From IMG/VR virus record IMGVR_UViG_3300034104_005002, positions 64,001 to 128,000 of that record: a stretch of DNA of 64,000 nt; one strand, given 5' to 3'. The notes under the pieces were generated by a model. The model saw only the letters and a program-made list of their open reading frames with translations. It was not told the DNA's origin and made no database searches. This stretch comes from a virus. Within the stretch, counting starts at the first letter, position 1. Every line of letters starts with the position of its first letter. The position numbers and the translations under genes are program-made. Shown piece by piece: positions 32,382 through 60,863 of this stretch.

Positions 32382-32513
32382 TTAGACCTCCTCAATTTCA
32401 ATGTCTTCTTCGTTTACTTTATCGTCCATGGCCAATTCTAAAAGAATTTTAGTGATCTCCTCGTCAGAGATGTTTTTATAGATTGGTCTTCCTTTATATA
32501 GGATGTTTATCAT
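32382..32513 (-). CDS. Small acidic protein (43 aa)
   Basis: MINILYKGRPIYKNISDEEITKILLELAMDDKVNEEDIEIEEV; abuts or overlaps its neighbours. Confidence 0.7.
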   Translation of the reverse strand: MINILYKGRPIYKNISDEEITKILLELAMDDKVNEEDIEIEEV

Positions 32514-33661
32514 AGTTTGGTGATTTTTACAATATTTTTGTGTTTATGTTGCTTTCCTTGAATCATAGACCATAGAGAACCCCTTGAATATCCTCTTTCT
32601 CTGCAAAACATATTCAGATTCACAAAAATTTCTTTTGTTTCATCAACATAGGTTACCTCATATTGTTTCGCAACATAGTACATAGTTTCTGGATCTCCAC
32701 CTTTTGCAGAATTAGCACTTGATGTCATCCATTGAAGATTGGACGGATGATTATTTAATTTATTCCAGTCTATGTGATCAACAGTATCAAATTCATCGGG
32801 GTTTGAATTTTCAACAAGTTGTTTTGCAACGAGTCTGTGAACCTTTTGGATGATCTTCTTCTCACCGGGAAGTTTCATGTTTAATTGATAATATCCAGTC
32901 TTATGAACATGTTGAGATGTTTCTCTAACAAAGTTCTCTGATAGAACCATTTCGTTTTTAACCGGTTTCCATTTACTAAAGATTCTTACTTGTTCTGAGG
33001 GATCATCTTTTTTATAAACAATATAATACCCAGGCCAATCATCTAGTTCAACAGTATCATAACCAGAAAGATCAATTTTTAATTCTTCTTTTTTCCTAGA
33101 ACGGCCCTTTATATTCCTTTCAATTTCATTAAAGGCAATAATTCCATTATATTCTAGAATTTCTCCTTTACGAAGTTTATATATGGACTCCTCTGAAAGG
33201 TTGTTCTTTTCTAGAAACTCAAGAAATCCTGTTACAATTTCTTTACGTCCATCTAGGTAAACGACTTCAAATTGTTTCGTTTTTCCCTTGGCCCGATTAA
33301 TGTTTACGGCAAAGAGTTTATAGTCATTGTCTGAAACCCATTTTAGGTTCGTTGGATGGCAATTATAAATGTTGTTGTCTTTATGAATGACTCTATTATA
33401 ATTTCTTGGATTATCAATCAGGTAGGATGCAACAAGAGTATCTAAGTAGACTCTCACCTTTTTACCCATGGTTGCGATAGTGACGTATAGTCGGTCCCTA
33501 TCGTCTGCGGATTTTAAGGGTCTTGAGTACGTTAAATCGATGACCGCAGGAGTCTGTCCGGTCTTTCTCCAGTTACTATGAATTGTTACAGGAACAGATG
33601 GATCATTCTCGTCATATGAGAAGTAGTAGCCATCGTGTTCTTTTATGCGAATTTTGTTCAT
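32510..33661 (-). CDS. HNH homing endonuclease with internal tandem duplication
   Basis: Two similar halves: LVASYLIDNP..VIHKDNN..N.HPTNLKW and VHRLVAKQLV..VDHIDWNKLNNHPSNLQW; start placed at MNKIRI, downstream of the promoter. Confidence 0.85.
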   Translation of the reverse strand: MNKIRIKEHDGYYFSYDENDPSVPVTIHSNWRKTGQTPAVIDLTYSRPLKSADDRDRLYVTIATMGKKVRVYLDTLVASYLIDNPRNYNRVIHKDNNIYNCHPTNLKWVSDNDYKLFAVNINRAKGKTKQFEVVYLDGRKEIVTGFLEFLEKNNLSEESIYKLRKGEILEYNGIIAFNEIERNIKGRSRKKEELKIDLSGYDTVELDDWPGYYIVYKKDDPSEQVRIFSKWKPVKNEMVLSENFVRETSQHVHKTGYYQLNMKLPGEKKIIQKVHRLVAKQLVENSNPDEFDTVDHIDWNKLNNHPSNLQWMTSSANSAKGGDPETMYYVAKQYEVTYVDETKEIFVNLNMFCRERGYSRGSLWSMIQGKQHKHKNIVKITKL

Positions 33662-33713
33662 GTCTATATAATATGGATTTACAAATCTCCTTCTTGCGGA
33701 AAGAGACCTGGAC

Positions 33714-33742
33714 ATTATAGCCCAGGTCTCTAGATTTGTCAA
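33714..33742 (-). promoter_or_regulatory. Consensus sigma70 promoter of the HNH gene
   Basis: TTGACA-17 nt-TATAAT on the minus strand. Confidence 0.85.
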
Positions 33743-34874: not shown

Positions 34875-35151
34875 GACGATTTTTACCCGGCGGAAATTTT
34901 TTGGTTTATGGGAAACAAAAAGTGAATTTTGATTTGACCTTTTTATGTAATTTTACCCGGCCGGGATTTTTTTATAAGACGTAAATTGGTTCGGGTTTTT
35001 GGTGGAAAATGGGGGTTTTATGTAATTATGGGATAATGGGGGTGGATTTGGGGTTTTATTTTAAAAGGCTTTGATTTTTATGGTTAGGCCCAGGCCGCGA
35101 TCATAACACACCCCGCCCATACTGTCAACTGCTCGTAATAAACTGTAATAA

Positions 35152-35190
35152 TATCACGAACCCACGAAGATTAGGGGTGAGTTCGTGATA
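35152..35190. terminator. Hairpin terminating the leftmost early gene
   Basis: TATCACGAAC...GTTCGTGATA inverted repeat just downstream of the 35200 stop. Confidence 0.6.
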
Positions 35191-35199
35191 CTAACTGTG

Positions 35200-35433
35200 T
35201 CAGACTCGATGACGCAAACCAGCAGGCAATTGTCGGTTCCTACGTGTTAGCTCCATCCCATAAGTACAGGCCTGGTCGATGTAGTAACCTTCCCTTACAT
35301 TATTCCAGCCCTTCATATTGCGGGCCGCAGATTGACAGTCTTTGATAACATGAACCAGACTGTAACAATCTAACACTTTAGCATGATCTTCCCACCGTTG
35401 GAAGTCTGCTGGAGTGGCGTATTCTGTGGCCAT
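35200..35433 (-). CDS. Hypothetical early protein
   Basis: ORF, ATG start MATEYAT. Confidence 0.7.
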   Translation of the reverse strand: MATEYATPADFQRWEDHAKVLDCYSLVHVIKDCQSAARNMKGWNNVREGYYIDQACTYGMELTRRNRQLPAGLRHRV

Positions 35434-35504
35434 TGTTAACACTGGGAGATAGGAGGTTTGAGAGAATTAGGGGAGAGACTGTGCCCTCCCCTGATGTACC
35501 TAAC

Positions 35505-35912
35505 TCAGATAATTTCGCTCACGATCTCATCACCGCCAAGCGTACATGGCTCGCCATCGATATAATCAACCGGCTGAAATGATGGGCATACGCTCCATGT
35601 TTCCGTCTCAATAAAGTGGTTCAGAGCAAATTGGGCAAACAATTTTGCGCCACTGTTTTTATAAAACTGCCCCATGCAATAATGCAACTTATTGGTATCA
35701 ATCCGGTTAGGATAAACCATAACAACCTCACAGAAAAGCAAGCCCTGTTGCCTACCCTCACCGATGCGGAATGATACCTCAAACTTGTATCCACCAACAG
35801 CGTAGAAGTGTACACAATCGGTGTAGATTCCACCGATGTCATCATCAGCAGGCGGCCACGTAGAGTAGGCTTCCCAGTTGAGAGTGTAACGGTTGAGAGT
35901 GGCGGTTGTCAT
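35505..35912 (-). CDS. Hypothetical early protein
   Basis: ORF, ATG start MTTATL downstream of a -10-like box. Confidence 0.7.
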   Translation of the reverse strand: MTTATLNRYTLNWEAYSTWPPADDDIGGIYTDCVHFYAVGGYKFEVSFRIGEGRQQGLLFCEVVMVYPNRIDTNKLHYCMGQFYKNSGAKLFAQFALNHFIETETWSVCPSFQPVDYIDGEPCTLGGDEIVSEII

Positions 35913-36089
35913 CGGATCGGCTCCGGTTGTTTGACCCTTTAATAATCCCACGTTTCGGCTCGCCGTTCTGTATCAACCGCTACCGTTTCCATGATTCGAC
36001 TGATAAGATACGCTGATGGCCGTTTGGTATCACCCGATACAGTGGCCTGGCCTGATCTGTCCTAGTATTGTTTCAACAAAATAAAAAGA

Positions 36090-36131
36090 GCGGGGGCGCC
36101 GCAATGATATAAAACAAGACACTTAATCTGC
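36090..36131 (+). repeat. Intergenic element copy R1
   Basis: GCGG-gggcg-CCGC then AATGATATAAAACAAGACACTTAATCTGC. Confidence 0.8.
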
Positions 36132-36208
36132 CATAAAATAATAAAGTATAAAGAACAAATAAAGACCCCAGAGTATAAAGAACTCTAGGGCCACTGATTG
36201 TTATTAAC

Positions 36209-36610
36209 TCATGCGGGCAAACTATAAGCAATCATCTCATTTGTGCCCTTGGGCTGTAAACGAATCACCCCATCTTTGACAGTTCGATTACATTTAACAT
36301 TGGTAAGTTGAGTCAGTTCCCGCACTTTACGGGCAATACTCTGGTGGTTTTTAGTAGTCGTAGTGAACGAATATCCCCACACGGGCTGTAGTCCGGCTGG
36401 GGTAATCTCGGCCACGTCTATTTTAATGCGGAACATTTCACCTTTGGCAATGAGAACATTCTCATAATACTCGGTAAATTGTAGCCGCTCGCTGCCATCC
36501 TTGCGGGTTCCAATATAACCAGCAGAGCGAACAATGATAGCATTGCTGACACCAGCAGCACGGCAGGCCTCACGGTGGGCCAGGAGAGCGGTTCCGGTGA
36601 GTTTGATCAT
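36209..36610 (-). CDS. cyAbrB-like N-terminal domain protein
   Basis: LTG.ALL...VR.AGY...KDGSERL.FT.YYE..L.AKG matches the cyanobacterial AbrB-like N-terminal domain; C-terminus is different. Confidence 0.7.
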   Translation of the reverse strand: MIKLTGTALLAHREACRAAGVSNAIIVRSAGYIGTRKDGSERLQFTEYYENVLIAKGEMFRIKIDVAEITPAGLQPVWGYSFTTTTKNHQSIARKVRELTQLTNVKCNRTVKDGVIRLQPKGTNEMIAYSLPA

Positions 36611-36721
36611 GGGTTGTTCCCTTGACTGCTCCCATAGTGTAGCAGCTCTAGAGGCTAGTGGCGAGGTTTTAACGATTAGCGGTGCTTATGGGTCTGATAA
36701 AATATGTTTATGAATAAAACC

Positions 36722-36869
36722 TTGACTTTATGGGTCACTGCTGCTATACTATAAACAACAAAAGAAAACAAAACGCAAAAGCGTGATAATATAAAACGGG
36801 ACACTTATCCTGCACTTTTTTATTATTATAAAAAACAAAAAAAAACCTGGAAGTATAAAACCTCCAGGT
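36722..36869 (+). ncRNA. Element R2: promoter, hairpin core, terminator-like hairpin (candidate sRNA)
   Basis: TTGACT-17-TATACT, ACGC-aaaa-GCGT, ATAAAACGGGACACTTATCCTGC, ACCTGGA..TCCAGGT. Confidence 0.55.
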
Positions 36870-36881
36870 GGTTGATTATAA

Positions 36882-37199
36882 TCAGCAGGTTGGATGTTTC
36901 TTATTCTCCCACCGATCATAATGCGCGTCGATTACTTCCTGCAACGGTTCGTAATCAGTATAATCGGCGGCGATTACACCGGGTTCATTACCCAGAACCA
37001 GGAAGATTGCCACCTTTTTATTGTTATGTTGAAGCCGCAATGTGGATTCGTCTGTAGCCACAGTTTCCTCCAAGAACTCAGTCTTGGATACATCCGAATA
37101 TCGAATATTTTCCTCTCCATTGTTTACACTCAAAGGTGTAAATCCGGCCCGTTTGAGGGACTTAAGCAGGGAGCGGACTTCAGGGTGGTAGTCGTTCAT
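36882..37199 (-). CDS. Hypothetical early protein
   Basis: 105-aa acidic ORF with upstream -10 box. Confidence 0.75.
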   Translation of the reverse strand: MNDYHPEVRSLLKSLKRAGFTPLSVNNGEENIRYSDVSKTEFLEETVATDESTLRLQHNNKKVAIFLVLGNEPGVIAADYTDYEPLQEVIDAHYDRWENKKHPTC

Positions 37200-37289
37200 G
37201 GGGTGAATCCCTTTGACCCTTTAAGTATTGCAGACCCAGGCCGATCCGTCAAGACCCCAAACGATCAGAAATGCTTATGGGTCCAGGGC

Positions 37290-37445
37290 TTGACAATACT
37301 GGAAAAGTGTTTTATACTATAAACAACAAAAGAAAACAAGCGGAGGACCGCAATAACATAAAACGAGACACTTATCCTTCTTTTTTATACTATTTTTTAT
37401 ACTAAACAAAAGTGACCCGTAAGTATAAAGAACTCGCGGGTCACT
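37290..37445 (+). ncRNA. Element R3 (candidate sRNA)
   Basis: TTGACA-17-TATACT, GCGG-agga-CCGC, ATAAAACGAGACACTTATCCT, AGTGACCCG..CGGGTCACT. Confidence 0.55.
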
Positions 37446-37450
37446 GTTTT

Positions 37451-37630
37451 TTATACTACTTCAGTTAGTATAATTTCCTTTGCGTACCAAAGTTGAACCA
37501 ATGCATCATCCAATTCTTTAATCTTAGAATCAAAAGTAGCATCTTTAGTGATAGACGCGCACCGGATCAATTCTCTACGGCGATCAAGTAAAGCCATGCG
37601 AATACAATAACCGCTAAGTGTGACAGACAT
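37451..37630 (-). CDS. Hypothetical protein (59 aa)
   Basis: MSVTLSGYCIRMALLDRRRELI...; manual translation. Confidence 0.6.
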   Translation of the reverse strand: MSVTLSGYCIRMALLDRRRELIRCASITKDATFDSKIKELDDALVQLWYAKEIILTEVV

Positions 37631-37664
37631 AACTATAAAGAATGAAGGAAAGTTGGTAAATTAA

Positions 37665-37864
37665 CTAGATCAAGGTGAGAAATTCTTTTTCGTCATATCC
37701 CCCAGAATCCATAGCGTCTTCCAGTTCTGTAACTAGCCCGTCAAAATCTTCACTAGGGGCAAGATGTTGGTCAGAACATCAACTAGGCTACCATATTCTT
37801 CGCGCAAATTATCAAGATACTCCCCACGATTAGCAAAACCGTTGTTCTGATAGGGGCAAGACAT
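37665..37864 (-). pseudogene. Frameshifted small acidic phage protein
   Basis: MSCPYQNNGFANRGEYLDNLREEYG..ILP continues as SEDFDGLVTELED in another frame; 200 nt, one base short, at a C4 run near 37756. Confidence 0.6.
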
Positions 37865-37962
37865 GAGAGGCGTTCCCTTGGTTGACTAGTCAACTGTAAC
37901 CCATAAAAACCAGACGATCACCGTACCTTGTGCCACTTAAACAACTGGCACAATTAAAATAA

Positions 37963-38346
37963 TTATCCTTGGAAGTTAGGAACACTAAAACCAAACTCAA
38001 ACTTGAAAACTATAATGTTAAGAACATCGAAAATCTCTCTTAGTTTTTCCTTGGCCAATGGGTGCTCTAAAGCATATTTTTCACAAGGATAAAGATCATC
38101 TTCGTCTAGCTCTAAAAGATCCTCATTAACATCTGGAATCTCGTCAGACTCATGGAAACTCAGATCATATTTCTCATTACAAAAGAATATCTTACCCATA
38201 CCTACCACAAAAGTTAGATCATTCTCTTTACAGAATGGAACAACAGTTGATTCAAAGTATTGTTCTGCAATTGCATCAATTTCCTTATAAGCCCTATTTT
38301 CAATCTCCTCAAGTTGTTTGGCTATTTTGTCAGAGATAGTGGCCAT
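37963..38346 (-). CDS. Hypothetical acidic early protein
   Basis: 127-aa ORF behind an early promoter. Confidence 0.75.
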   Translation of the reverse strand: MATISDKIAKQLEEIENRAYKEIDAIAEQYFESTVVPFCKENDLTFVVGMGKIFFCNEKYDLSFHESDEIPDVNEDLLELDEDDLYPCEKYALEHPLAKEKLREIFDVLNIIVFKFEFGFSVPNFQG

Positions 38347-38462
38347 TGGAGAATTGTCTGGTTGACTGGATTAGTATAAGGGAGATAATGGGTTGGTGGT
38401 CAGGGCCTTGTGACACTTATGGAACTGGCACACCATCAGTCACGATTAAGGTTTTTATGGAT

Positions 38463-38586
38463 TATACTATAAACAACAAAAGAAAACAAGCGGAGGACCG
38501 CAATAACATAAAACGAGACACTTATCCTGCACTTTTTTATTATTATAAAAAACAACAAAAAAGAGTCAGAATTAACTAACTCTTTT
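38463..38586 (+). ncRNA. Element R4 (candidate sRNA)
   Basis: About 66 nt identical to R3 from TATACT through CTTATCCT; downstream hairpin. Confidence 0.55.
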
Positions 38587-38596
38587 ATACGAATTA

Positions 38597-38848
38597 TCAA
38601 TAATTCAATACCTCATTAGCATTATCTTCGGCCTCTTCAGTTGTAACAAATGGGCCAAAAAACTCAGAATTAGGAATACAACCAGGAGAACAAACTGCCC
38701 AATAGTAACCTGGTTCATACAAATTATCACCAGAAGTTTCACGCAATCCTTCGGCTTCATTATGTTGATCACAATCGGATTGTGAAAACCAAGTGATCCA
38801 AACCGGGGTGGACCCTTCGTTATCAGTGTGTTGGATGGTGGTTTGCAT
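38597..38848 (-). CDS. Hypothetical early protein
   Basis: GYYW..C.PGC.P.S...GPF.T.EEA motif. Confidence 0.75.
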   Translation of the reverse strand: MQTTIQHTDNEGSTPVWITWFSQSDCDQHNEAEGLRETSGDNLYEPGYYWAVCSPGCIPNSEFFGPFVTTEEAEDNANEVLNY

Positions 38849-38934
38849 GGTCGTGTCCGGTTGACTTGCTTAGTATAGGGTGAGAAGGGGACCATAAACA
38901 GTCCCCTTGTGCCAGTTGTTGAACTGTCTATTGT

Positions 38935-39603
38935 TTAATAATCCCAGCCGTTTTCGTCTTTTATGTATACATTACATGACGAAAAATCGACACATAAAGT
39001 AGCAGTTTGTCCCTCAATTGCATCACTAAGGAAATTATCCGCTGCCTTACGAATAGATGTAAACAAATGATCATAAGAATACATATTAGAAAATCTTTTC
39101 TTAAACATCTGATAACCCTTACAGATCCATCCAACGATGGAATCAATATCATAATCGGCCAATTCTTCTTCACCATATTCACCATCAGACCATTCATCCA
39201 GGGCCTCAATTATACCTTCTCTTACGTTTTTCCTGAGTTTATCCATAATCCACTGATCCTGCAGATACGAATTACACTTATCAATTTTTGTAAAATCATA
39301 ATCATCACCATTTAATGAGGCAGTGAGTAGAGACTGAATATCACTACTTACATCATCAATCGAGGCTGATCTATAACCTCTAGAATTATATCCACACGCA
39401 ACTCTCCCGGCAATATAACCGCCAATCGCCATAAGCTCATCAGTATAACCACAAGAGTGTGGCTTTACAGTATGTTCTAGAATGTCATGGGCAACAACTA
39501 GCCCATCCAATCCTGGCTCAAAATAATTACGACCAGTATCTACAACTATACCTAGTCCACCGTATTCTTCATGCTCTTTAATAACCAGAGAATACTTTTT
39601 CAT
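38935..39603 (-). CDS. Hypothetical acidic protein (possible metal-binding HDILEH motif)
   Basis: ORF, start MKKYSL; AHDILEH..DELMAIGG. Confidence 0.75.
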   Translation of the reverse strand: MKKYSLVIKEHEEYGGLGIVVDTGRNYFEPGLDGLVVAHDILEHTVKPHSCGYTDELMAIGGYIAGRVACGYNSRGYRSASIDDVSSDIQSLLTASLNGDDYDFTKIDKCNSYLQDQWIMDKLRKNVREGIIEALDEWSDGEYGEEELADYDIDSIVGWICKGYQMFKKRFSNMYSYDHLFTSIRKAADNFLSDAIEGQTATLCVDFSSCNVYIKDENGWDY

Positions 39604-39764
39604 GGGAGGAATCCCAGCGACTTCTAAAGAATAAACCACCACCACCGATAAGTCAAGACCTTTACTGATAAGATTATCTGATTGGACCCATAAGCAGGAA
39701 TGATCACCAGAGGCCCCCAGGAGCCCGCCAGAGGCGTTATAATGGTCTTAAGACAACCACACAA

Positions 39765-39805
39765 GCGCAAGGGCGTTATTACATAAAACTAGAAACTACT
39801 CCTGC
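39765..39805 (+). repeat. Element R5 core
   Basis: GCGC-aagg-GCGT then TATTACATAAAACTAGAAACTACTCCTGC; TATAAT at 39738. Confidence 0.8.
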
Positions 39806-39858
39806 AATTTTTTATTATTATAAAAAGAAAAGAGAGAATAAATCTCTCCTTTATATTT

Positions 39859-39987
39859 TTAGACGCGCCCAACGTAATGCTGAACGCCAGATTCCAAAGT
39901 TAATTTAACCGCCAGCTCCCAGGCCTCGTTTATATCCTGGGGAGCACGAAACAACTCCCACTGATTAGCACGGTAAATGATAATCAT
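39859..39987 (-). CDS. Hypothetical protein (42 aa)
   Basis: MIIIYRANQWELFRAPQDINEAWELAVKL...; manual translation. Confidence 0.55.
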   Translation of the reverse strand: MIIIYRANQWELFRAPQDINEAWELAVKLTLESGVQHYVGRV

Positions 39988-39990
39988 AAT

Positions 39991-40191
39991 TCAGGCAGCC
40001 AGAATAAGGTTTGCAACTATTTTTTCACCAGGCAATTCTTGGAGTTTATTATAAACAGCCTCGAATTGTTGAACCATGTTCAGATAATAAGCCGACAGAT
40101 GTGGGCTATTATCATAAACTGCCTGCTCTTCATCACACAAGACTGAAATAATGTCCAGGATTTCACCAGAGGTTAGAGTGATTTGAGTCAT
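39991..40191 (-). CDS. Hypothetical early protein
   Basis: Start reassigned to MTQITL, downstream of the promoter. Confidence 0.7.
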   Translation of the reverse strand: MTQITLTSGEILDIISVLCDEEQAVYDNSPHLSAYYLNMVQQFEAVYNKLQELPGEKIVANLILAA

Positions 40192-40364
40192 GGGAAACAG
40201 GAGTTGTAGAGATTTTAGTGGTGGGTTTTCATCACACGTTACGTTGGTGATGACCCTTTTATTGTAAAGGGAGAGAATGGATGATTGGTCAGGACCTTGT
40301 GCCACTTAAACAACTGGCACACCATCAACCACGGTCCAGGTTTTTATAGTTTATACTATAAACA

Positions 40365-40405
40365 ACGCAGGGGCGTGATTACATAAAACGAGAAACTACT
40401 CCTGC
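40365..40405 (+). repeat. Element R6 core
   Basis: ACGC-aggg-GCGT then GATTACATAAAACGAGAAACTACTCCTGC; TATACT at 40352. Confidence 0.8.
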
Positions 40406-40456
40406 ACTTTTATATTATTATAAAAAACGGGAGAGATTTATTCTCTCCTTTATACT

Positions 40457-40609
40457 TCAGATCCTCCCTACACAAACTGGATTTTGTGAGTTTAGATCGA
40501 GCATAAGAATAAATCTATACATCGTCGTTGACATACAAACAAACAGAAAAGCTCCCATGACTAAACAAACAAAAATGGTACGAATGGTTGAAAAATTAAT
40601 TTGTCCCAT
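40457..40609 (-). CDS. Small membrane protein (50 aa)
   Basis: MGQINFSTIRTIFVCLVMGAFLFVCM...; has its own early promoter. Confidence 0.6.
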   Translation of the reverse strand: MGQINFSTIRTIFVCLVMGAFLFVCMSTTMYRFILMLDLNSQNPVCVGRI

Positions 40610-40660
40610 GGTGTTTTTGTGTTGACCCTTTTATTGTAAAGGGAGAGAATGGATGATTGG

Positions 40661-40822
40661 TCAGGACCTTGTGCCACTTAAACAACTGGCACACTCCGTA
40701 ACTTGATTTGATTGCAATAGATTCATTTTAATAAGAGCCGCATCAAATGCAGATGTAATTAAAACGAAAATAACCGAAAAAACAAAAATAACACAAAAGT
40801 CCTTAAAAGTAATTGGTCCCAT
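40661..40822 (-). CDS. Small membrane protein (53 aa), paralog of 40457-40609
   Basis: MGPITFKDFCVIFVFSVIFVLITSAF...; identical leader and start region. Confidence 0.6.
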   Translation of the reverse strand: MGPITFKDFCVIFVFSVIFVLITSAFDAALIKMNLLQSNQVTECASCLSGTRS

Positions 40823-40874
40823 GGTGTTTTTGTGTTGACTGGTTTATTATAAGATGTGGTGAAATTGGTTTTTA

Positions 40875-41084
40875 TTAAATATCCTGAAACCCCCTACCAC
40901 TAACAAGAGCTATCTGGTCAGCATCTTCCGAAACAAGAAAAATCTGGGAACTGCCAATAATGTCTATACGAGTGCGTCGAGGATAATCATCATGTTCGGC
41001 TATTTGCTGAATAAAGAGTATTTTATTTGGATCTAGGTAAACTGGCTCACGAGTTTGCCAATCGGTTAATTTAAGAAATTCCAT
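40875..41084 (-). CDS. Hypothetical protein (FlbD-like small beta protein)
   Basis: MEFLKLT...PVYLDP.KI..I...T.I......V.E pattern. Confidence 0.6.
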   Translation of the reverse strand: MEFLKLTDWQTREPVYLDPNKILFIQQIAEHDDYPRRTRIDIIGSSQIFLVSEDADQIALVSGRGFQDI

Positions 41085-41250
41085 TGACGATAATGGTGTA
41101 ATGACTAGCTTATTATAAGGGAGATAATGCGTGACTGGTCAGGGCCTTGTGACACTTAAACAACTGGCACACTTATGCCCTTCTCCGCGTTACTAGCAAC
41201 TAGAATAAACTCAGTCGATAGGAGACACCCACCCGCTCAAAATTAAATCA

Positions 41251-41291
41251 GCGAAGGGTCGCAATGATATAAAACTGGACACTTATCCTGC
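41251..41291 (+). repeat. Element R7 core
   Basis: GCGA-aggg-TCGC then AATGATATAAAACTGGACACTTATCCTGC. Confidence 0.8.
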
Positions 41292-41358
41292 CATATTATA
41301 TTTTTATAAAGAATAGAAAAAAATCCAGAGTATAAACACCCTGGATTAGATTTTTATG

Positions 41359-41637
41359 TCATTCTTTCAGATGACAAATATCAGCATGATTGAACTTCTT
41401 AATCATAAGAAAACTGATACGAATTGGTTGCTCTGCAAGATAAAACCACACTCCAGTTTCATCAATTCCAATTTCACCATCAACCGATGATAGGTCTACA
41501 CAATCACCTCCATCATTATCAGCAATGTATGGGGAATCATCCATATCATAACCAACAAAGTAAAGAGTATCATTCAAGACTACAGCATAGGCCTCTGCCA
41601 AAAGATTATGGAAAGTATCAAGAGAAATTGTTGCCAT
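41359..41637 (-). CDS. Hypothetical acidic early protein
   Basis: Start reassigned to MATISL. Confidence 0.7.
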   Translation of the reverse strand: MATISLDTFHNLLAEAYAVVLNDTLYFVGYDMDDSPYIADNDGGDCVDLSSVDGEIGIDETGVWFYLAEQPIRISFLMIKKFNHADICHLKE

Positions 41638-42048
41638 TTGTGTCTGGTGTGGTTGACTCATACAGTGTAACCCATAAGAACCGGTCCCAGTGGACAGTTC
41701 ATAAAGTGACACATACAACAAATACCCCTAAAGATTTTTGGATTTTTTATCCAAACTGGGGCAAACCTAGTATTTTATTGTATAATACACGATGTTCGAC
41801 TTTCTTATAAACTTTAATACTTTATCCCGTAGGAGTATGTAAGAGGTTTATAATAAAGAGAGAACAATTGTCTTTTGTTTAGAACAGTGACCGAATCAAT
41901 GATTCCTGGGTGTTCATTATAAAAAACAATTCTTATCACAATTATATTTAGCATCTTTATGTGGTGGACAGTTGCGAAAGTGTCTGTTTTTTATGATCTT
42001 TTCTGTTTTTTATGATATAATTGTGGGTTGTGTATTTTATGCAGGCCA

Positions 42049-42264
42049 ATACTACTACATAAAAAAGACTAAATTATAAATTATAAAATATAAAATATAA
42101 AATATAAAATAATACAGATATACTACTACATAAAAAAGACTAAATTATAAAATATAAAATAATATAGACATAAAAACAAAATAATACAGATATACTACTA
42201 CATAAAAACAAAATAATACAGATATACTACGAAATAATACAAATAGTACAAATATATTATACAC
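42049..42264 (+). repeat. AT-rich iterated tract (candidate replication origin)
   Basis: ATACTACTACATAAAAA at 42049, 42120, 42192 (partial at 42224), interleaved with ATATAAA and AATAATACAGAT repeats; very few G on the plus strand. Confidence 0.75.
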
Positions 42265-42352
42265 GAATACTAAAAAATTGCCGTAAGGACGTATATTCGC
42301 CCAAATTTTAGACTGCCATAAAAATAAATAACTAGGTTAAGGAATTATAACA

Positions 42353-42931
42353 ATGAACAATCTAAAAGAAGTCTCTAAAATAGAAGGTCTTGAAGATTTC
42401 TCTGGGTATTTTGTAGATATTCATGGGAATGTATATTCCAACAGACAGAAAAATAAAGGACTAAAAAAGAAAGCATTTTTTAAGAGTGGAATAGGTCCCA
42501 GTTATAACAAAGTTATACTATGTGGAAAGAATGGTGTAACAAGAGCCTTTTACGTGCATATACTGGTAGGGAAACTTTTTATTCCTAAAAGTAATCATAG
42601 AAAATACTTCATTCACAGATCAGATGATGTTTACGATAATTCACTGGAAAATATCATAAGCGTAGATAAATACCGCGTTAAAAAGGATCATAAGATGGGG
42701 CGGCCACGCACCAGACCGGAAATGATAAATGATCTGGAAAAAGAATCCATCCTATCCGATAAATTAGTGGCCGAATTGAAACTTTTTTATAAGGCAGCAG
42801 TGATAAAAGGAGCCTATCAGGGTAAAGAATTTGACTTTATAGATGAAATGGTTACAGAATTGATGGATATGTACGCGAATCAGAGAGGTTTAAAAAAAAT
42901 CCTTCATCAGATTCGACAGGAGGAAGGGTAG
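42353..42931 (+). CDS. Degenerate NUMOD4/HNH-derived DNA-binding protein
   Basis: GYFVD.HGNVYS, YVHILV..LFIP, H...DVYDNSLEN; helical C-terminus; ATAAATA box and AGGA RBS upstream. Confidence 0.7.
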   Translation: MNNLKEVSKIEGLEDFSGYFVDIHGNVYSNRQKNKGLKKKAFFKSGIGPSYNKVILCGKNGVTRAFYVHILVGKLFIPKSNHRKYFIHRSDDVYDNSLENIISVDKYRVKKDHKMGRPRTRPEMINDLEKESILSDKLVAELKLFYKAAVIKGAYQGKEFDFIDEMVTELMDMYANQRGLKKILHQIRQEEG

Positions 42932-42966
42932 CGGTCTGGGATCGAGAAAAAGTGAAAGAATCCCTT

Positions 42967-43151
42967 TTATGGGAGGCTGTCTAACATTTTCCAATGAGTC
43001 ACATTTTGAACAATATAAGCATCAGGACCTTTCATTATCCAATAATCTGCTCCCATTTCAAGATCAACTTGCTCATTGTCCTTTTCCATCAGTGAAAATA
43101 ACTTCTATAGATCGCCATTCATTGGACATTTACTGGGATCCAATTGTTCAT
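42967..43151 (-). pseudogene. DUF551-like pseudogene
   Basis: MNNWIPV / EVIFTDGK / VQNVTHWKMLDSLP, split by frameshifts and stops. Confidence 0.55.
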
Positions 43152-43752: not shown

Positions 43753-43866
43753 TTGAGTGGTTGTGAACTGAGGTTATTGTAGCAGGTAGAATAGTCTGGT
43801 GAGTCTGGCGCTTGTGCCAGTTTGGTGACTGGCACATTATAAAAAGGAAAGGGATCTCTCTTATAA

Positions 43867-45339
43867 TCAATCCTCTACAATAACCTTGGTCAGATGGTGC
43901 TTTGCGCGAGTTACCTGAACATAAAGAAGATTATCTTCTTGTTGTAATTCCCAGTCCTGTTTGGCCCATTTGGACGGAGAATAATGATTCATTCCCAGGG
44001 AGAATACTCGATTCCATTCCCTACCTTTGGACCTATGAATCGTGGACAATACAAGAATCTTTTTATTCTCGGTATCATCAAACAATTCCCGAATCTTATT
44101 GATTAGAGTAGAAATAGGATCATCAAATGCACACTGATCAATAAAGACCATAAGTGTTTCTACCTGATCCTCGATTACCTGACACTTGGTATCATTTCCT
44201 TTTTCTTTATACTTTTGAATCTCTTTTTCCTTATAAATTTCTAACTTATTGATCAGGGTCTTGACGGTGTTTACCTTCCACCTTGTTGCAAGTTTGATTA
44301 GACCTTCACCGATCTTTCTTCCTTCTACCTTACAAGGAATTTTGTTTCGGATAAGATTATAAGCAACCTCCACAAGAGGCTTAGTATTGCGGCAGATGAT
44401 TGCATCCTCTTGAATTACAAGTTTGGCGAGATCTTTTAGGGTACATTCGTCTACAATTCCATCCGGGGAATCGGGGTGAGATTCAACATGCGAAACAAAT
44501 TTTTGGGCCTCTTTTACTACATTTTTGGGGCAGCGGAATGTCACAGAAAGAGGCAGCTCAACTGCATTAAAATCTTTCTTGATTAGATCCAGGGCATTAG
44601 AATCGGCGCCCGTAAATCCATAAATTGCCTGATGTGGATCACCAACCGCAATAAGCCTACCAGACTTTTTAAGCATCATTTTAACTAATGCCCTGCGAGT
44701 TGCATTAGTATCTTGGGCCTCATCAAGAAAAATATAATCGTACTGCCAGATTTTGAGCCTGTTGCGAATCGGCAGATAAATCATGTCTGCAAAATCCACC
44801 ACACTTGTAATCTGGTTAGAGATACTAAGAAGATATTGACACGCATCTACAGCAGTATCATCAGAAACAGTGGTCGGCAGATTATCCCACAGATCATAAT
44901 GATCAAACATCTGGGTCCAATTATTATAATCATCGTCGATACATGCACCGATTCCGACTTCTTTGGCCATTGCAACAGCAGATGTCACAAATGGGCGCAG
45001 GATTTCGTGCTCATTATTAAATTCTTCCCTGGCCAGATTTTGTAACTTATTTCCGTCTACACTGATTCTGGAATAGGCCCTTCTAAGAGCACCAAAACCG
45101 AAACTATGAACAGTGCCCACCTTTACATCTTTATTGATATTCTGTTGGTTTACTCTACATTCAATTTCTTTTGCAATTGCCTTATTGAATGCACAAAAGG
45201 CGGTGGTGCCTTTTGTTACTTTTAACATTTCAATCAGCGTGCTTGTCTTACCAGCACCCGCGACGGCAGAAAGTATAATCGATCCCTTCCCACTCTCGAC
45301 TTCGTTAATGGCGACAGACTGTTGGGGTGAAAGTTGCAT
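43867..45339 (-). CDS. UvrD/Rep-like superfamily 1 helicase
   Basis: AVAGAGKT, DEAQD, VGDPHQAIYGFTGA, LSVTFRCP, LSTIHRSKGREW, YVQVTRAK. Confidence 0.93.
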   Translation of the reverse strand: MQLSPQQSVAINEVESGKGSIILSAVAGAGKTSTLIEMLKVTKGTTAFCAFNKAIAKEIECRVNQQNINKDVKVGTVHSFGFGALRRAYSRISVDGNKLQNLAREEFNNEHEILRPFVTSAVAMAKEVGIGACIDDDYNNWTQMFDHYDLWDNLPTTVSDDTAVDACQYLLSISNQITSVVDFADMIYLPIRNRLKIWQYDYIFLDEAQDTNATRRALVKMMLKKSGRLIAVGDPHQAIYGFTGADSNALDLIKKDFNAVELPLSVTFRCPKNVVKEAQKFVSHVESHPDSPDGIVDECTLKDLAKLVIQEDAIICRNTKPLVEVAYNLIRNKIPCKVEGRKIGEGLIKLATRWKVNTVKTLINKLEIYKEKEIQKYKEKGNDTKCQVIEDQVETLMVFIDQCAFDDPISTLINKIRELFDDTENKKILVLSTIHRSKGREWNRVFSLGMNHYSPSKWAKQDWELQQEDNLLYVQVTRAKHHLTKVIVED

Positions 45340-46035: not shown

Positions 46036-46139
46036 GGCTGGTTTGGTTGAACTGAGACTATTGTAAGTCTAGGAAGGTGGTCAGAGGTTGGCGCTTGTGC
46101 CAGTTTGGTGACTGGCATATTATAAAGAGCAGAGAGAAA

Positions 46140-49545: not shown

Positions 49546-49611
49546 GGTGTTTTTTTGAACTGTGATTATTGTAAGGCTAGAATGGTCTGGTGGTGGTGGG
49601 TCTTGTGCCAG

Positions 49612-49914
49612 TTATTCAGGTGTCACAGGATCGGTGACATACTTATTTCCATTCAAAAATTCAATCAACTTTTGTTTCCATACATCATAACCATTTGAAA
49701 AAAGATGTTCTTCAGGATTCAAAACAACACCTAGGCCATAAAGAAGATCATCAATAAAAGTAAAATCATTATAATTTTCATAACCATACTGATTAGGATA
49801 AGTCTCCATGTATTGTTGAAGATACTTCACCATAAGAACCATCCTCTTTTTCCTATATTCTGGATCTTTTTTATCCAGAGCAATTAGTTGATCGACAATT
49901 TCGTAAGTTTTCAT
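49612..49914 (-). CDS. Hypothetical protein
   Basis: 100-aa ORF behind an early promoter. Confidence 0.7.
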   Translation of the reverse strand: MKTYEIVDQLIALDKKDPEYRKKRMVLMVKYLQQYMETYPNQYGYENYNDFTFIDDLLYGLGVVLNPEEHLFSNGYDVWKQKLIEFLNGNKYVTDPVTPE

Positions 49915-50358: not shown

Positions 50359-50538
50359 TTTTCGGTGGTGGGAACGTCAATAATAATGATCTCTTGATTG
50401 TTATTCAGGTATTCAATTTGAACAACTTTTGGAGTGATCTGGACTTTGCCGATAATCAGTGAGCGGTTCATGGTTGTTTGATTGAACTGAAGTCAGTATA
50501 AAAGAAAATTGGGGCCAATGGTCGGCCCCTTGTGCCGC

Positions 50539-50817
50539 TTATTCAGGTGTCACACCTAATTTATCATAAGTATCAAAACTACAATAATCTCCCTCTAATT
50601 CTTCTGGTCTAGCAACATCTAGAAACATTTGATAGGTATAAAAATCAAATGTCGATGATGGGGCAACAAAATTATAAAAAGGATCTCCATCCCTGTATGC
50701 TAAATCCGGTAAATTCCAATTAGCCCCAAAATATTTACAACCACTACACCTAGATTCGCCATAAATTTCCTGACTTTCACAGGTAATACATCCACCATGA
50801 AAAATAGTCATTTTCAC
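50539..50817 (-). CDS. Hypothetical Cys-motif protein
   Basis: CITC...CSGC. Confidence 0.65.
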   Translation of the reverse strand: MKMTIFHGGCITCESQEIYGESRCSGCKYFGANWNLPDLAYRDGDPFYNFVAPSSTFDFYTYQMFLDVARPEELEGDYCSFDTYDKLGVTPE

Positions 50818-51485: not shown

Positions 51486-51568
51486 GGGGTAAAAATCCCT
51501 TAACGACAAATGTAGAATACAGCAGGATTAGTGGGTCTGGTCGGGTGCTTGTGCCAGTTAGTCAGGTG

Positions 51569-51795
51569 TCATACCCATGTAACAAAAATGCTTCTAGTGT
51601 ATTTGTTATAATTCCACAATTTAAACCCTTCATCATTTAAATAGGCAATAATAATATCAACCTCTTCTTGTTCGATATTGTCTATTTCACAAGAAATAAG
51701 ACCACCTTCTGCGGCAAGTCTAAGAGATTTTTGACCTTTTCTATGGTTAAATTGTCTTGAAAAGAAAGTTGTAGCAGATCGTAAGAAAGTGTCAT
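51569..51795 (-). pseudogene. Frameshifted small protein
   Basis: MTLSYDLL..IEKVK continues as SLRLAAEGG..FVTWV in a shifted frame; 227 nt, one base short, at an A5 run. Confidence 0.55.
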
Positions 51796-52173: not shown

Positions 52174-52256
52174 GGGGTAAAAATCCCTTGTCAACAAAGA
52201 TAGTATAAAAGAGAATTGGTGGGTCTGGTCGGGTGCTTGTGCCAGTTAGTCAGGTG

Positions 52257-52580
52257 TCACGGCTCCAGCAATTCTCTTTGTTCTGGAGTGAGAGATTCTA
52301 AGAATTCTTTACGTTTTTTGGCCTTGGATTCTCTGGCTAATTGTTTTTCAATTTCTTTGTCAAAGTAATCTACCATATCATCATAGGTATAATCGCCAGC
52401 ATCCCAGTCTGAAGTATTATCGTTTTTTATGAAAACCATTTTGTAATAATAATCTTTATTACCCTGCCAATCATAATAGAGATTTATTTTATAACCTTCA
52501 TCATTTTGAACAAAATCAGTACTAATTCCCAATTTTTCGGCCTTCGTTAGAAAATTTAGGATTTGTGTTGCAGTAATCAT
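52257..52580 (-). CDS. Hypothetical protein
   Basis: 107 aa, ends LTPEQRELL. Confidence 0.75.
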   Translation of the reverse strand: MITATQILNFLTKAEKLGISTDFVQNDEGYKINLYYDWQGNKDYYYKMVFIKNDNTSDWDAGDYTYDDMVDYFDKEIEKQLARESKAKKRKEFLESLTPEQRELLEP

Positions 52581-60503: not shown

Positions 60504-60626
60504 AATAAAGTAAAAGAGGTAAACGACAGTTGGTTTGTTGTGGTGTGAGGTGTCCCCCTCACCGACCTTTATAAGATAACAGGGGCTGGAGGGCTTTTTG
60601 GCGCCCTTGGGCCAGTTTGAGGAGTG

Positions 60627-60863
60627 TCACATCGTCTTCCAATAATCAGGATTCTCTTCCACATAATTATTGAAAACTTCCAAACATTCTGCAACAGAGA
60701 ATTCATGAATAGCAGATGTTTCGGAAAAAGAATTCCAATAAGGAGATTTTAGGTAAATCCAAATGCCATCATTGTTCCAACCACTTCTTTCATCTGAAAT
60801 AAAATCCACCCTCGGATCATTCTTTATATTTTTTAAAGTTCTGGCTATTTTAAACTTAGTCAT
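60627..60863 (-). CDS. Hypothetical protein
   Basis: Start MTKFKI; DER..DGIWIYLK...AIHE. Confidence 0.7.
   Translation of the reverse strand: MTKFKIARTLKNIKNDPRVDFISDERSGWNNDGIWIYLKSPYWNSFSETSAIHEFSVAECLEVFNNYVEENPDYWKTM

Follow-up and report, generated by a model that had tools for sequence, protein, structure and literature searches.

Several described systems combine promoters, stem-loops and short non-coding transcripts in the spaces between genes. The PeSL (promoter-early stem-loop) cassettes of T4-like phages are repeated composite terminator/promoter motifs in the intergenic spaces of hyperplastic ORFan regions; they use host sigma-70-like promoters and are found at the borders of insertions, deletions and replacements between close relatives (Arbiol et al., 2010, PMC2839356; Comeau et al., 2014, PMC4122927). 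In a PeSL, the stem-loop lies directly upstream of a promoter that faces the next gene and ends in an SD plus start codon. The oop RNA of phage lambda is a short non-coding RNA with its own constitutive promoter, which is placed in an intergenic spacer of an early operon, transcribed against the operon, and ended at a terminator near the 3' end of the upstream gene; it is a single copy and acts by perfect antisense overlap with cII. Bacterial multicopy sRNA families, such as Yfr2-5 of marine picocyanobacteria, Qrr, and the Sib/QUAD repeats, consist of several paralogous chromosomal host genes of about 100 nt, each with its own promoter and terminator, that share a conserved unpaired motif. Finally, nut sites and rrn boxB-boxA antitermination leaders are promoter-proximal and carry a short GC stem with a purine-rich loop next to a conserved linear block. 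Few small RNAs are known from lytic phages, and we know of no multicopy paralogous family described for T4-like cyanophages.

Here we describe a repeated element of a T4-like freshwater cyanophage that lies backwards between its early genes. Like PeSLs, the elements are clustered in a hyperplastic region between ORFans of a T4-like phage: the gp7-gp6-gp25 baseplate genes are followed by small hypothetical genes, and the flanking genes have no Pfam hits and only unknown-function PHROGs. However, the promoter (TTGACA-17-TATACT) is on the strand opposite to all flanking genes, no SD or ATG follows it, and it is instead followed by a covarying mini-hairpin and a 23-nt invariant block with no ORF before it runs into the terminator of the convergent gene. 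The true gene promoters form a separate repeat family in this region (families D5-D8). Compared to oop, the elements occur in 6-11 paralogous copies, and their conserved part lies outside any coding sequence.

A seven-copy element and its relatives

The window, the whole stretch of DNA analysed here, comprises 64,000 nucleotides (positions 64,001 to 128,000 of IMG/VR record IMGVR_UViG_3300034104_005002). The original prediction described seven plus-strand copies of an element with a 4-bp stem, a purine-rich loop and a conserved block, and this observation holds. The 23-nt block ATAAAACNRGAMACTWMTCCTGC occurs seven times at 36109-41291, always on the plus strand; its IUPAC form matches seven times with up to 3 mismatches, against 0.00 in 100 shuffles. 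No further copy was found in the whole 161,054-bp record, even with 4 mismatches or with a covariance model. The stem types GCGG/CCGC, ACGC/GCGT, GCGA/TCGC and GCGC/GCGT, the purine loops, the absence of an ORF, and the AGTATAAA loops of the downstream hairpins of R1, R2, R3 and R7 are all as predicted. The copies (R1 to R7) and an associated palindrome are as follows.

36063-36200 (+): R1 unit; -10 TAGTAT 36063-36068; stem-loop GCGG-GGGCG-CCGC 36090-36102; core 36109-36131; hairpin 36164-36192, a minus-strand terminator with a poor plus-side T-run, so read-through is possible (67 bits).
36722-36878 (+): R2 unit; TTGACT-17-(TG)TATACT 36722-36750 (10/12 promoter match with TG); stem-loop ACGC-AAAA-GCGT 36773-36784; core 36791-36813; hairpin 36845-36869 (88.1 bits; fold z = -4.1).
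37290-37453 (+): R3 unit; TTGACA-17-TATACT 37290-37318 (11/12, the best promoter match in the region); stem-loop GCGG-AGGA-CCGC 37340-37351; core 37358-37380; hairpin 37411-37445 (-18.9 kcal/mol, 7 T after the hairpin) followed by TGTTTTTTAT (77.9 bits; z = -5.2).
38463-38592 (+): R4 unit; -10 TATACT 38463-38468; stem-loop GCGG-AGGA-CCGC 38490-38501; core 38508-38530; bidirectional-looking hairpin 38559-38586 (94.7 bits).
39738-39860 (+): R5 unit; -10 TATAAT 39738-39743; stem-loop GCGC-AAGG-GCGT (G.U in the plus sense) 39765-39776; core 39783-39805; hairpin 39828-39852, terminator-like on both strands (81.8 bits).
40352-40458 (+): R6 unit; -10 TATACT 40352-40357, only 7 nt before the stem (almost no leader); stem-loop ACGC-AGGG-GCGT 40365-40376; core 40383-40405; hairpin 40429-40449, terminator-like on both strands (82.9 bits; z = -5.8).
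41201-41357 (+): R7 unit; -10 TAGAAT 41201-41206 with a long leader; stem-loop GCGA-AGGG-TCGC 41251-41262; core 41269-41291; hairpin 41322-41347 (82.3 bits).
38410-38431 (no strand assigned): palindrome GTGACA-N10-TGGCAC, midway between the R4 promoter and the divergent minus-strand gene promoter; equivalent sites lie at 40299-40320 (R6) and 41149-41170 (R7).

To determine if the element is conserved, we searched other phage sequences and found 73 distinct copies, 6-11 per genome, in related uncultured freshwater phage contigs and in the cultured Synechococcus phages B3 and B23. Each of five phage records holds its copies in one 5-9 kb cluster after gp7-gp6-gp25, and this includes B3, in which the cluster is at the same syntenic place and antisense to all annotated genes. 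One copy, in the relative G002, is co-oriented with a helicase gene and has no terminator; it looks like a 5' leader rather than a stand-alone RNA. The core is nearly invariant across at least four clades whose proteins are only about 70% identical at the DNA level. A cmscan of 35000-43000 against Rfam 15 at E <= 1 gave only two sub-threshold chance hits, L20_leader (28.9 bits against a gathering score of 58.7) and rli47. To look for a host counterpart, such as the CRISPR repeat that a solitary-repeat RNA anti-CRISPR would mimic, we scanned 185,579 species genomes with an exact pattern; this gave 7 single hits at about the chance level we estimated, with no array and no cyanobacterium, although the pattern was strict and distant mimicry is not excluded.

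Stem, promoter and terminator signatures

We then examined whether the 4-bp stem, which is marginal on its own, is under selection as RNA. In the alignment, 96.1% of cells pair against 76.9 +/- 1.9 in shuffles, 49 cells carry double changes against 16.5, and slid controls give at most 51%. There are 8 stem types and 20 distinct stem-loops, the loops are about 100% purine, and three independent G.U contexts are all in the plus sense; these would be A.C on the minus strand.

A TAnnnT -10 box lies 18-22 nt upstream of the stem in 49 of 73 copies. These hexamers vary only at positions 3-5 (TATACT 23, TAGACT 21, TAGAAT 6, and others), and TG precedes the box in 40 of 73 copies. At least 5 of 6 TTGACA positions match in 18 copies, at a spacing of 16-18 nt, over 14 different spacer sequences, of which 12 are exactly 17 nt and two 18 nt. 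Within the window, R3 and R2 are the two best promoter matches in the region and the only copies with a -35 box; the other five have a -10 box only. The minus-strand genes have their own proximal promoters downstream of the element, which therefore lies in a spacer that gene-sense transcription should not reach.

The downstream hairpin starts 25-34 nt after the core in most copies. The original prediction assigned it to the plus-strand element; however, these hairpins are first of all terminators of the convergent minus-strand gene, with A-runs of 7-9 in 10 bases before them, and are bidirectional in some copies. Only R5 and R6 passed the plus-strand terminator scan, R3, R4 and R7 have partial T-runs, R1 and R2 lack a plus-side T-run, and across the family the plus-side U-tract is good in only about half of the copies. 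That the stems act only as minus-strand terminators had been set beforehand as grounds for rejection; this condition applies to the downstream hairpins, not to the 4-bp stem and core.

Some transcripts may therefore run on as long antisense RNAs. We considered whether the elements are start modules for such RNAs, in which the hairpin and block form a 5' leader, possibly a nut/boxB-boxA-like antitermination or stabilising signal. Transcripts would read through the shared hairpin and cover the upstream early genes, either protecting them from RNase E by duplex formation, as reported for cyanophage P-SSP7, or shutting them off. The poor U-tracts of R1, R2 and about half of the family, the common antisense orientation of the clustered copies, and the leader-like copy upstream of the helicase gene in G002 are in line with this view, and the small GC stem with a purine loop followed by a linear conserved block resembles the boxB-boxA order of rrn leaders. 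However, R3, R5 and R6, and many relatives, have plus-side terminators that look good, although of these three only R5 and R6 passed the scan. The core does not match boxA of E. coli or of cyanobacteria (GAACCTTGAAAA); one long-leader subclass contains AACCTTGAA, a 9-10 of 12 match to the cyanobacterial ITS boxA, but inside a hairpin arm of the leader. Nothing lies downstream to antiterminate into except antisense of early genes, and no N- or Q-like factor was identified. We consider this reading unlikely.

We also asked if the functional strand could be the gene (minus) strand, with the block as a conserved 5' leader or long 5' UTR of the next early gene, or as the coding region of a small hydrophobic peptide of a type I toxin-antitoxin-like pair. 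TATAAT, TATAGT or TATACT lies on the minus strand 11-13 nt upstream of the core complement in about 75% of copies, which leaves a gene-sense promoter reading open in these copies, and minus-strand ORFs (MSRFMLLRSSACFLLLFIV and MQDKCLVLCYCGPPLVFFCCL) are open in many copies. However, the final T of that hexamer is not conserved, no -35 or TG accompanies it, and 12 of 57 distinct stems would carry A.C mismatches in the minus sense. Both frames are closed in R5 and R6, in their orthologues, and in the copies L012_14099 and L012_15625; R6 has no minus-strand ORF, starts and ends vary, and stem compensation gives radical residue changes (CGPPL, HAFAF, HAPAL). The conserved toxic peptide ORF of Sib-type pairs is thus absent, and a gene-strand function is very unlikely.

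An inferred family of plus-strand RNAs

Taken together, these results are best explained, with moderate confidence, by a paralogous family of small, independent plus-strand transcription units, each sitting in the spacer between the terminator of one minus-strand early gene and the promoter of the next. In this view, host sigma-70-type RNA polymerase would start at the TAnnnT box, often with TG or TTGACA-17, and transcribe an A-rich leader, the 4-bp GC hairpin capped by a purine tetraloop, a 6-nt linker, the almost invariant single-stranded 23-nt block (AUAAAAC-NN-GAMACU-NN-UCCUGC) and an AU-rich spacer, before stopping, at least partly, at the hairpin shared with the convergent gene. The product would be an RNA of roughly 95-145 nt, made early in infection from 6-11 genes per genome, and the invariant block would be the recognition surface for a trans partner, either a host RNA or an RNA-binding protein. 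Promoter, lack of a conserved ORF, covarying stem, invariant block and hairpin are the features expected of a bacterial-type sRNA gene. The repeat family, its strand-specific stem, the promoter signatures, the conservation across clades and the indels bounded by copies (see below) are established by the sequence comparisons, whereas transcription, RNA size, trans action and function are inferred, without transcript data.

The original interpretation is partly supported. Its central claim, a multicopy, independently promoted, structured plus-strand RNA, gains strong comparative support from the covariation, the plus-sense G.U pairs, and the -10, TG and -35 elements conserved over non-homologous spacers. 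However, the mechanism it proposed, masking of a host RBS plus start codon, rests on a motif that is not conserved: the 'start codon' in the reverse complement is present in only 4 of the 7 copies and about 57% of the family, it lies 15 nt from the AGGA, and the GTG alternative is also lost in R5 and R6. No complementary target was found within the phage either, as 10-mer hits are at chance level and translation-start regions pair no better with the core than with shuffled cores (-20.0 against a mean of -20.6 kcal/mol).

The alternative in the original prediction, an array of T4 oriF/oriG-style R-loop origins whose transcripts prime replication toward the iterated AT-rich tract at 42.05-42.26 kb, has no positive support and is very unlikely. 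A promoter is followed, after the core, by a spacer of about 30 nt that is almost entirely A/T, and all copies point at a tandem-repeat tract that is also present at the syntenic place in B3. However, there are 6-11 copies within 5-9 kb rather than single dispersed origins, the AT-rich spacer is largely the U-tract of the convergent terminator, and selection on an RNA hairpin and a sequence-specific block is not explained. There is no GC-skew inflection at the array or the tract, although this is weak evidence for a T4-like phage.

A more speculative possibility, which we regard as unlikely on present evidence, is that the elements encode a host-takeover decoy: a very abundant early RNA, made from 6-11 strong promoters, whose purine-looped hairpin and invariant block would titrate a conserved host RNA-binding factor, such as the Nus/rrn antitermination complex, RNase E or ribosomal protein S1, or would silence a conserved host mRNA, reprogramming the cyanobacterium within minutes of infection.

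If the RNA is made and has a host partner, it would be a new host-takeover mechanism in cyanophage infection. The element is conserved from uncultured lake phages to B3 and B23, whose hosts are in a culture collection, and this undescribed phage RNA family can therefore be tested in the laboratory.

Exchange between copies and early-promoter palindromes

Because the copies are 70-105-bp direct repeats, they would, in the favoured view, also act as homologous recombination points that insert, delete and swap the ORFan cassettes between them, as PeSLs do in other T4-like phages. The stretch 37288-37392 is duplicated around a roughly 600-bp insertion in the relative G001, and it matches both sides of this insertion; further breakpoints lie at the repeats, and indels and replacements against G001 begin and end in the copies. 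The copy of G001 orthologous to R4 carries the other stem type (ACGC/GCGT), which shows exchange between copies, and loop and core variants assort independently. Even if no RNA with a host partner is made, the elements show that PeSL-type cassette shuffling operates in cyanophages, with a different and more elaborate junction module.

These data also raise the possibility that the repeats are PeSL-like junction cassettes without a trans-acting product, which persist because they mediate shuffling and are homogenised by gene conversion. The outward-facing promoter and hairpin would then only insulate neighbouring cassettes, by convergent transcription that stops read-through or by supercoiling coupling with the divergent gene promoter. 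However, recombination or insulation does not require a covarying RNA stem, purine-only loops, plus-sense G.U pairs, or a 23-nt block invariant across clades with saturated flanks, and PeSL promoters face the downstream gene and end in an SD plus ATG, whereas these face away and have neither. We consider this reading possible but unlikely, though it is the strongest of the alternatives.

Finally, we considered whether the repeats are double-stranded DNA sites (iterons or operators) for a phage or host DNA-binding protein, given seven co-oriented copies of a 23-bp conserved sequence. This is very unlikely, as the conserved sub-blocks are spaced about 8.5 bp apart, not one helical turn, and a duplex DNA site does not explain stem covariation with strand-specific G.U pairs or the attached promoter. 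The core does share GACACTTA with one arm of the GTGACACTTA...TGGCAC palindromes of the early promoters. There are about 12 such palindromes in the window against 0.24 expected, and their centre lies roughly 53-56 nt from each predicted start site.

Genomic setting of the repeated element

The virus record is 161,054 bp in length with a GC content of 37%, and CheckV rates it as 68% complete; the window is bases 64001-128000 of this record. Between 36.06 and 41.35 kb of the window, all credible genes are small minus-strand ORFans, which have no Pfam hits and only two unknown-function PHROGs; none of the plus-strand ORFs in this region has a family match. Seven plus-strand copies of ATAAAACNRGAMACTWMTCCTGC (R1 to R7, numbered from left to right) occur there, against 0.00 expected in 100 shuffles, and none occurs elsewhere in the record. 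Each core is preceded at a fixed 6 nt by a 4-bp GC stem with a purine loop and is followed, 25-34 nt later in most copies, by a larger hairpin. The observation made in the original prediction holds, as its coordinates and stem types are correct. The other features of the region are as follows.

32510-33742: a gene for a 410-aa HNH endonuclease (PF13392, phrog_59), left of the array
36164-36192, 36845-36869, 37411-37445, and 41322-41347: terminator hairpins that share a long loop
38363-38433, 40252-40322, 40624-40694, and 41102-41172: second repeat family, forming promoters and 5' UTRs of minus-strand genes
37930-37951, 38410-38431, 40299-40320, 40671-40692, 41149-41170, 43814-43835, 46097-46118, 49605-49626, 50532-50553, 51551-51572, 52239-52260, and 60609-60630: palindrome GTG(C/A)CA-N10-TGGCAC
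42049-42263: A/T-rich tract of nested tandem repeats (periods 7, 32, and 71), just right of the array
42353-42931, plus strand: a lone HNH-like gene (phrog_959), next to the tract
43867-45339: a DNA helicase gene (phrog_1967), outside the array

The second repeat family reads, in the gene sense, palindrome, CCTGACCA, TCTCCCTTATAATAA, AGTCAAC, and ATG, and it represents the promoters and 5' UTRs of the minus-strand genes; other genes have recognizable TTGACG-17-AATACT-type promoters. The seven-copy element therefore sits between the terminator of one gene and the promoter of the next, a spacer that gene-sense transcription should not reach. The palindrome itself occurs about 12 times across the early region, against 0.24 expected. 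At R4, R6, and R7, it lies midway between the divergent element promoter and the gene promoter, about 53-56 nt from each predicted start. It looks like a shared operator for an unknown regulator.

We then examined the downstream hairpins, which have 7-9 A in the 10 bases before them and fewer T after them. A terminator scan calls six of them minus-strand terminators and only R5 and R6 plus-strand terminators as well; R3, R4, and R7 have partial plus-side T-runs, and R1 and R2 have none. In the four hairpins listed above and in many relatives, the stems are unrelated and compensating, but they share an unusually long loop, (A/G)GTATAA(A/G)(G)AA. The same TATAAA(R)AA string recurs 13-15 nt after the core, even in the one copy that has no hairpin (4287-4389 of L010, a locus of the relative G002). 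That the elements serve as leaders of long antisense RNAs, possibly nut-like, is an improbable alternative in our view. A long-leader subclass carries an extra 5' hairpin, CCAAGG-GAGAAAAA-CCTTG, in five of the collected loci (L001 1230-1332, L002 1475-1577, L004 3168-3270, L005 4178-4280, and L010 6385-6487). Its 3' arm reads AAACCTTGAA(A/T)G, a 9-10 of 12 match to the cyanobacterial rRNA spacer boxA GAACCTTGAAAA, which may be due to chance.

Distribution in related phages and recombination

To identify relatives, we first carried out a megablast search, which found only Synechococcus phages B3 and B23 (Kyanoviridae), at 72% identity in one gene. A 161-nt query with R4 hit an unannotated spacer of both phages. 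The B3 locus has the order gp7-gp6-gp25 followed by small leftward hypothetical genes, as in the window, and B3 also has an HNH homing endonuclease at the place corresponding to that of the 410-aa HNH endonuclease. A covariance model built from the copies finds 5 strong and 2 weak copies in B3, all antisense to the annotated genes. The annotated 38-aa hypothetical CDS gp252 of B3 (13444-13560 of L012, the B3 sequence) lies on the strand opposite to an element copy (13446-13516), is covered by it, and is probably a spurious gene call. The announcement paper for B3 and B23 does not mention the element. The host cultures of B3 and B23 are the Polar Cyanobacteria Culture Collection strains P-101 and O-120 (PMC7171214).

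Pattern scans of IMG/VR and of metagenomes gave more contigs, including a divergent clade in 258-kb contigs, in which the palindrome is also present (L024 and L025). In the metagenome scan, only 9 of 34 loci were real copies, all from the same freshwater phage lineages, and no new context emerged. Whole-record searches gave 7, 8, 11, 6, and 7 copies in five records, always in one 5-9 kb cluster and co-oriented, with one exception. In G002, the helicase gene (phrog_1967) sits inside the array (L010 2711-4560), and an inverted element copy with its promoter lies directly upstream and co-oriented with this gene, with no terminator between them, back to back with a normal copy. In total, 73 distinct copies were collected.

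We next compared the window with G001, a 98%-identical relative. The stretch 37288-37392 (R3 from its -35 box through the core) matches both sides of a roughly 600-bp insertion, and other replacements begin and end at the elements or at the gene-promoter repeats; breakpoints against relatives at 40193 and 40820 fall in the latter. The orthologue of R4 carries the other stem type. This is the behavior described for PeSLs; however, the module differs from a PeSL in orientation and content, and a reading as pure PeSL-like or insulator cassettes is unlikely, although it is the strongest of the alternatives. Known phage sRNAs and PeSLs are the nearest kinds, whereas a 6-11-copy, independently promoted, structured RNA module conserved across a clade of T4-like cyanophages did not turn up in Rfam or in the papers we searched.

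Strand and predicted form of the RNA

To determine which strand is functional and whether the element acts as RNA, we measured base pairing on a model-based alignment of 57 distinct sequences. In this alignment, 96.1% of stem cells pair, against 76.9 ± 1.9 in shuffles; double-sided changes occur in 49 cells against 16.5, and slid controls reach at most 51%. The outer pair is G-C in 27 copies, A-U in 18, and G.U in 12, and the inner pair is C-G in 29 copies and G-C in 26, with eight stem types and 20 distinct stem-loops. The G.U pairs arise in three independent contexts, always in the plus sense; they would be A.C mismatches in the gene sense, and no converse case exists. The loops are essentially all purine in the plus sense. 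Gene-strand readings are therefore considered very unlikely. Minus-strand peptide coding was rejected: two minus-strand frames are open in many copies because the strand is T-rich, but both are closed in R5, R6, and their orthologues.

Upstream of the stem, the best -10 hexamer is TATACT (23 copies), TAGACT (21), TAGAAT (6), or TATGCT, TATAAT, TAGGAT, and others, whereby T1, A2, and T6 are kept while positions 3-5 vary. This hexamer lies 18-22 nt before the stem in 49 of 73 copies, and TG precedes it in 40 of 73 copies. Eighteen copies match TTGACA at 5 or 6 positions, over 14 different spacer sequences, 12 of them exactly 17 nt and two 18 nt. Conserved hexamers over unrelated spacers are what selection for promoter function would produce. 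Taken together, we infer from sequence alone that the plus strand is transcribed by host-type RNA polymerase and that the stem forms in that RNA.

From the predicted start to the shared hairpin, the RNAs would be about 95-145 nt, comprising an A-rich leader (AACAACAAAAGAAAAC in the main class, almost absent in R6, and longer in R7), the mini-hairpin, the unpaired block, an AU-rich spacer, and the terminator hairpin. Column statistics over 72 distinct aligned copies show near-invariant positions, A-N-A-Y-A-N-AAAAC, then NN, then GA-M-ACU, then a variable stretch, and then CCUGC-A. We found no support for further structure. A loop-to-core pseudoknot (AGGA with UCCU) shows no covariation, as loops and cores assort independently. 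A second hairpin within the core (C-NN-GA/UCCUG) is fully paired only when NN is GG or AG, and it does not covary. An AU hairpin between the T-run and TATAAAAAA is absent from R1-type copies, which nevertheless keep TATAAA. The block therefore looks like a single-stranded recognition sequence; a role as DNA-binding sites is very unlikely.

The comparisons themselves establish the repeat family, its strand-specific stem, its promoter signatures, its conservation, and the indels bounded by copies, whereas expression, RNA size, and action in trans are deduced. We consider it likely that discrete or extended plus-strand RNAs are made. The full statement, a paralogous small-RNA family with a trans partner that doubles as recombination points, is only somewhat more probable than not.

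Searches for targets and alternative functions

We then asked if the element resembles a known RNA or has a recognizable target. An Rfam scan matched no family. An exact-pattern scan of 185,579 species genomes gave 7 unrelated single hits, about the number we estimated by chance and none in cyanobacteria; at this stringency, there is no host homologue, copy, complementary target, or CRISPR-like array. Within the phage genome, 62 ten-mer complementary hits were found, again about the number estimated by chance, and across 575 phage translation-start regions the core paired no better, by duplex energy, than shuffled cores.

The interpretation put forward in the original prediction is partly supported. 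A multicopy, independently promoted, structured plus-strand RNA gains strong comparative support, but the "RBS plus start codon" that it described is not conserved, and GC skew shows no inflection that would signal an origin. R-loop origins are regarded as very unlikely. At the place in B3 syntenic with the A/T-rich tract (L012 22413-22546), there is an A-rich tandem-repeat tract. The tract may be an origin or a divergent control region, although there is no GC-skew inflection there.

Finally, we considered TATAAA as a T4-type late promoter. This reading was rejected, as TATAAATA is rare and unbiased in this genome (8 on the plus strand and 7 on the minus strand). In contrast, CTAAATA is strongly strand-biased (36 on the minus strand and 7 on the plus strand) and is a candidate late-promoter motif for this phage.
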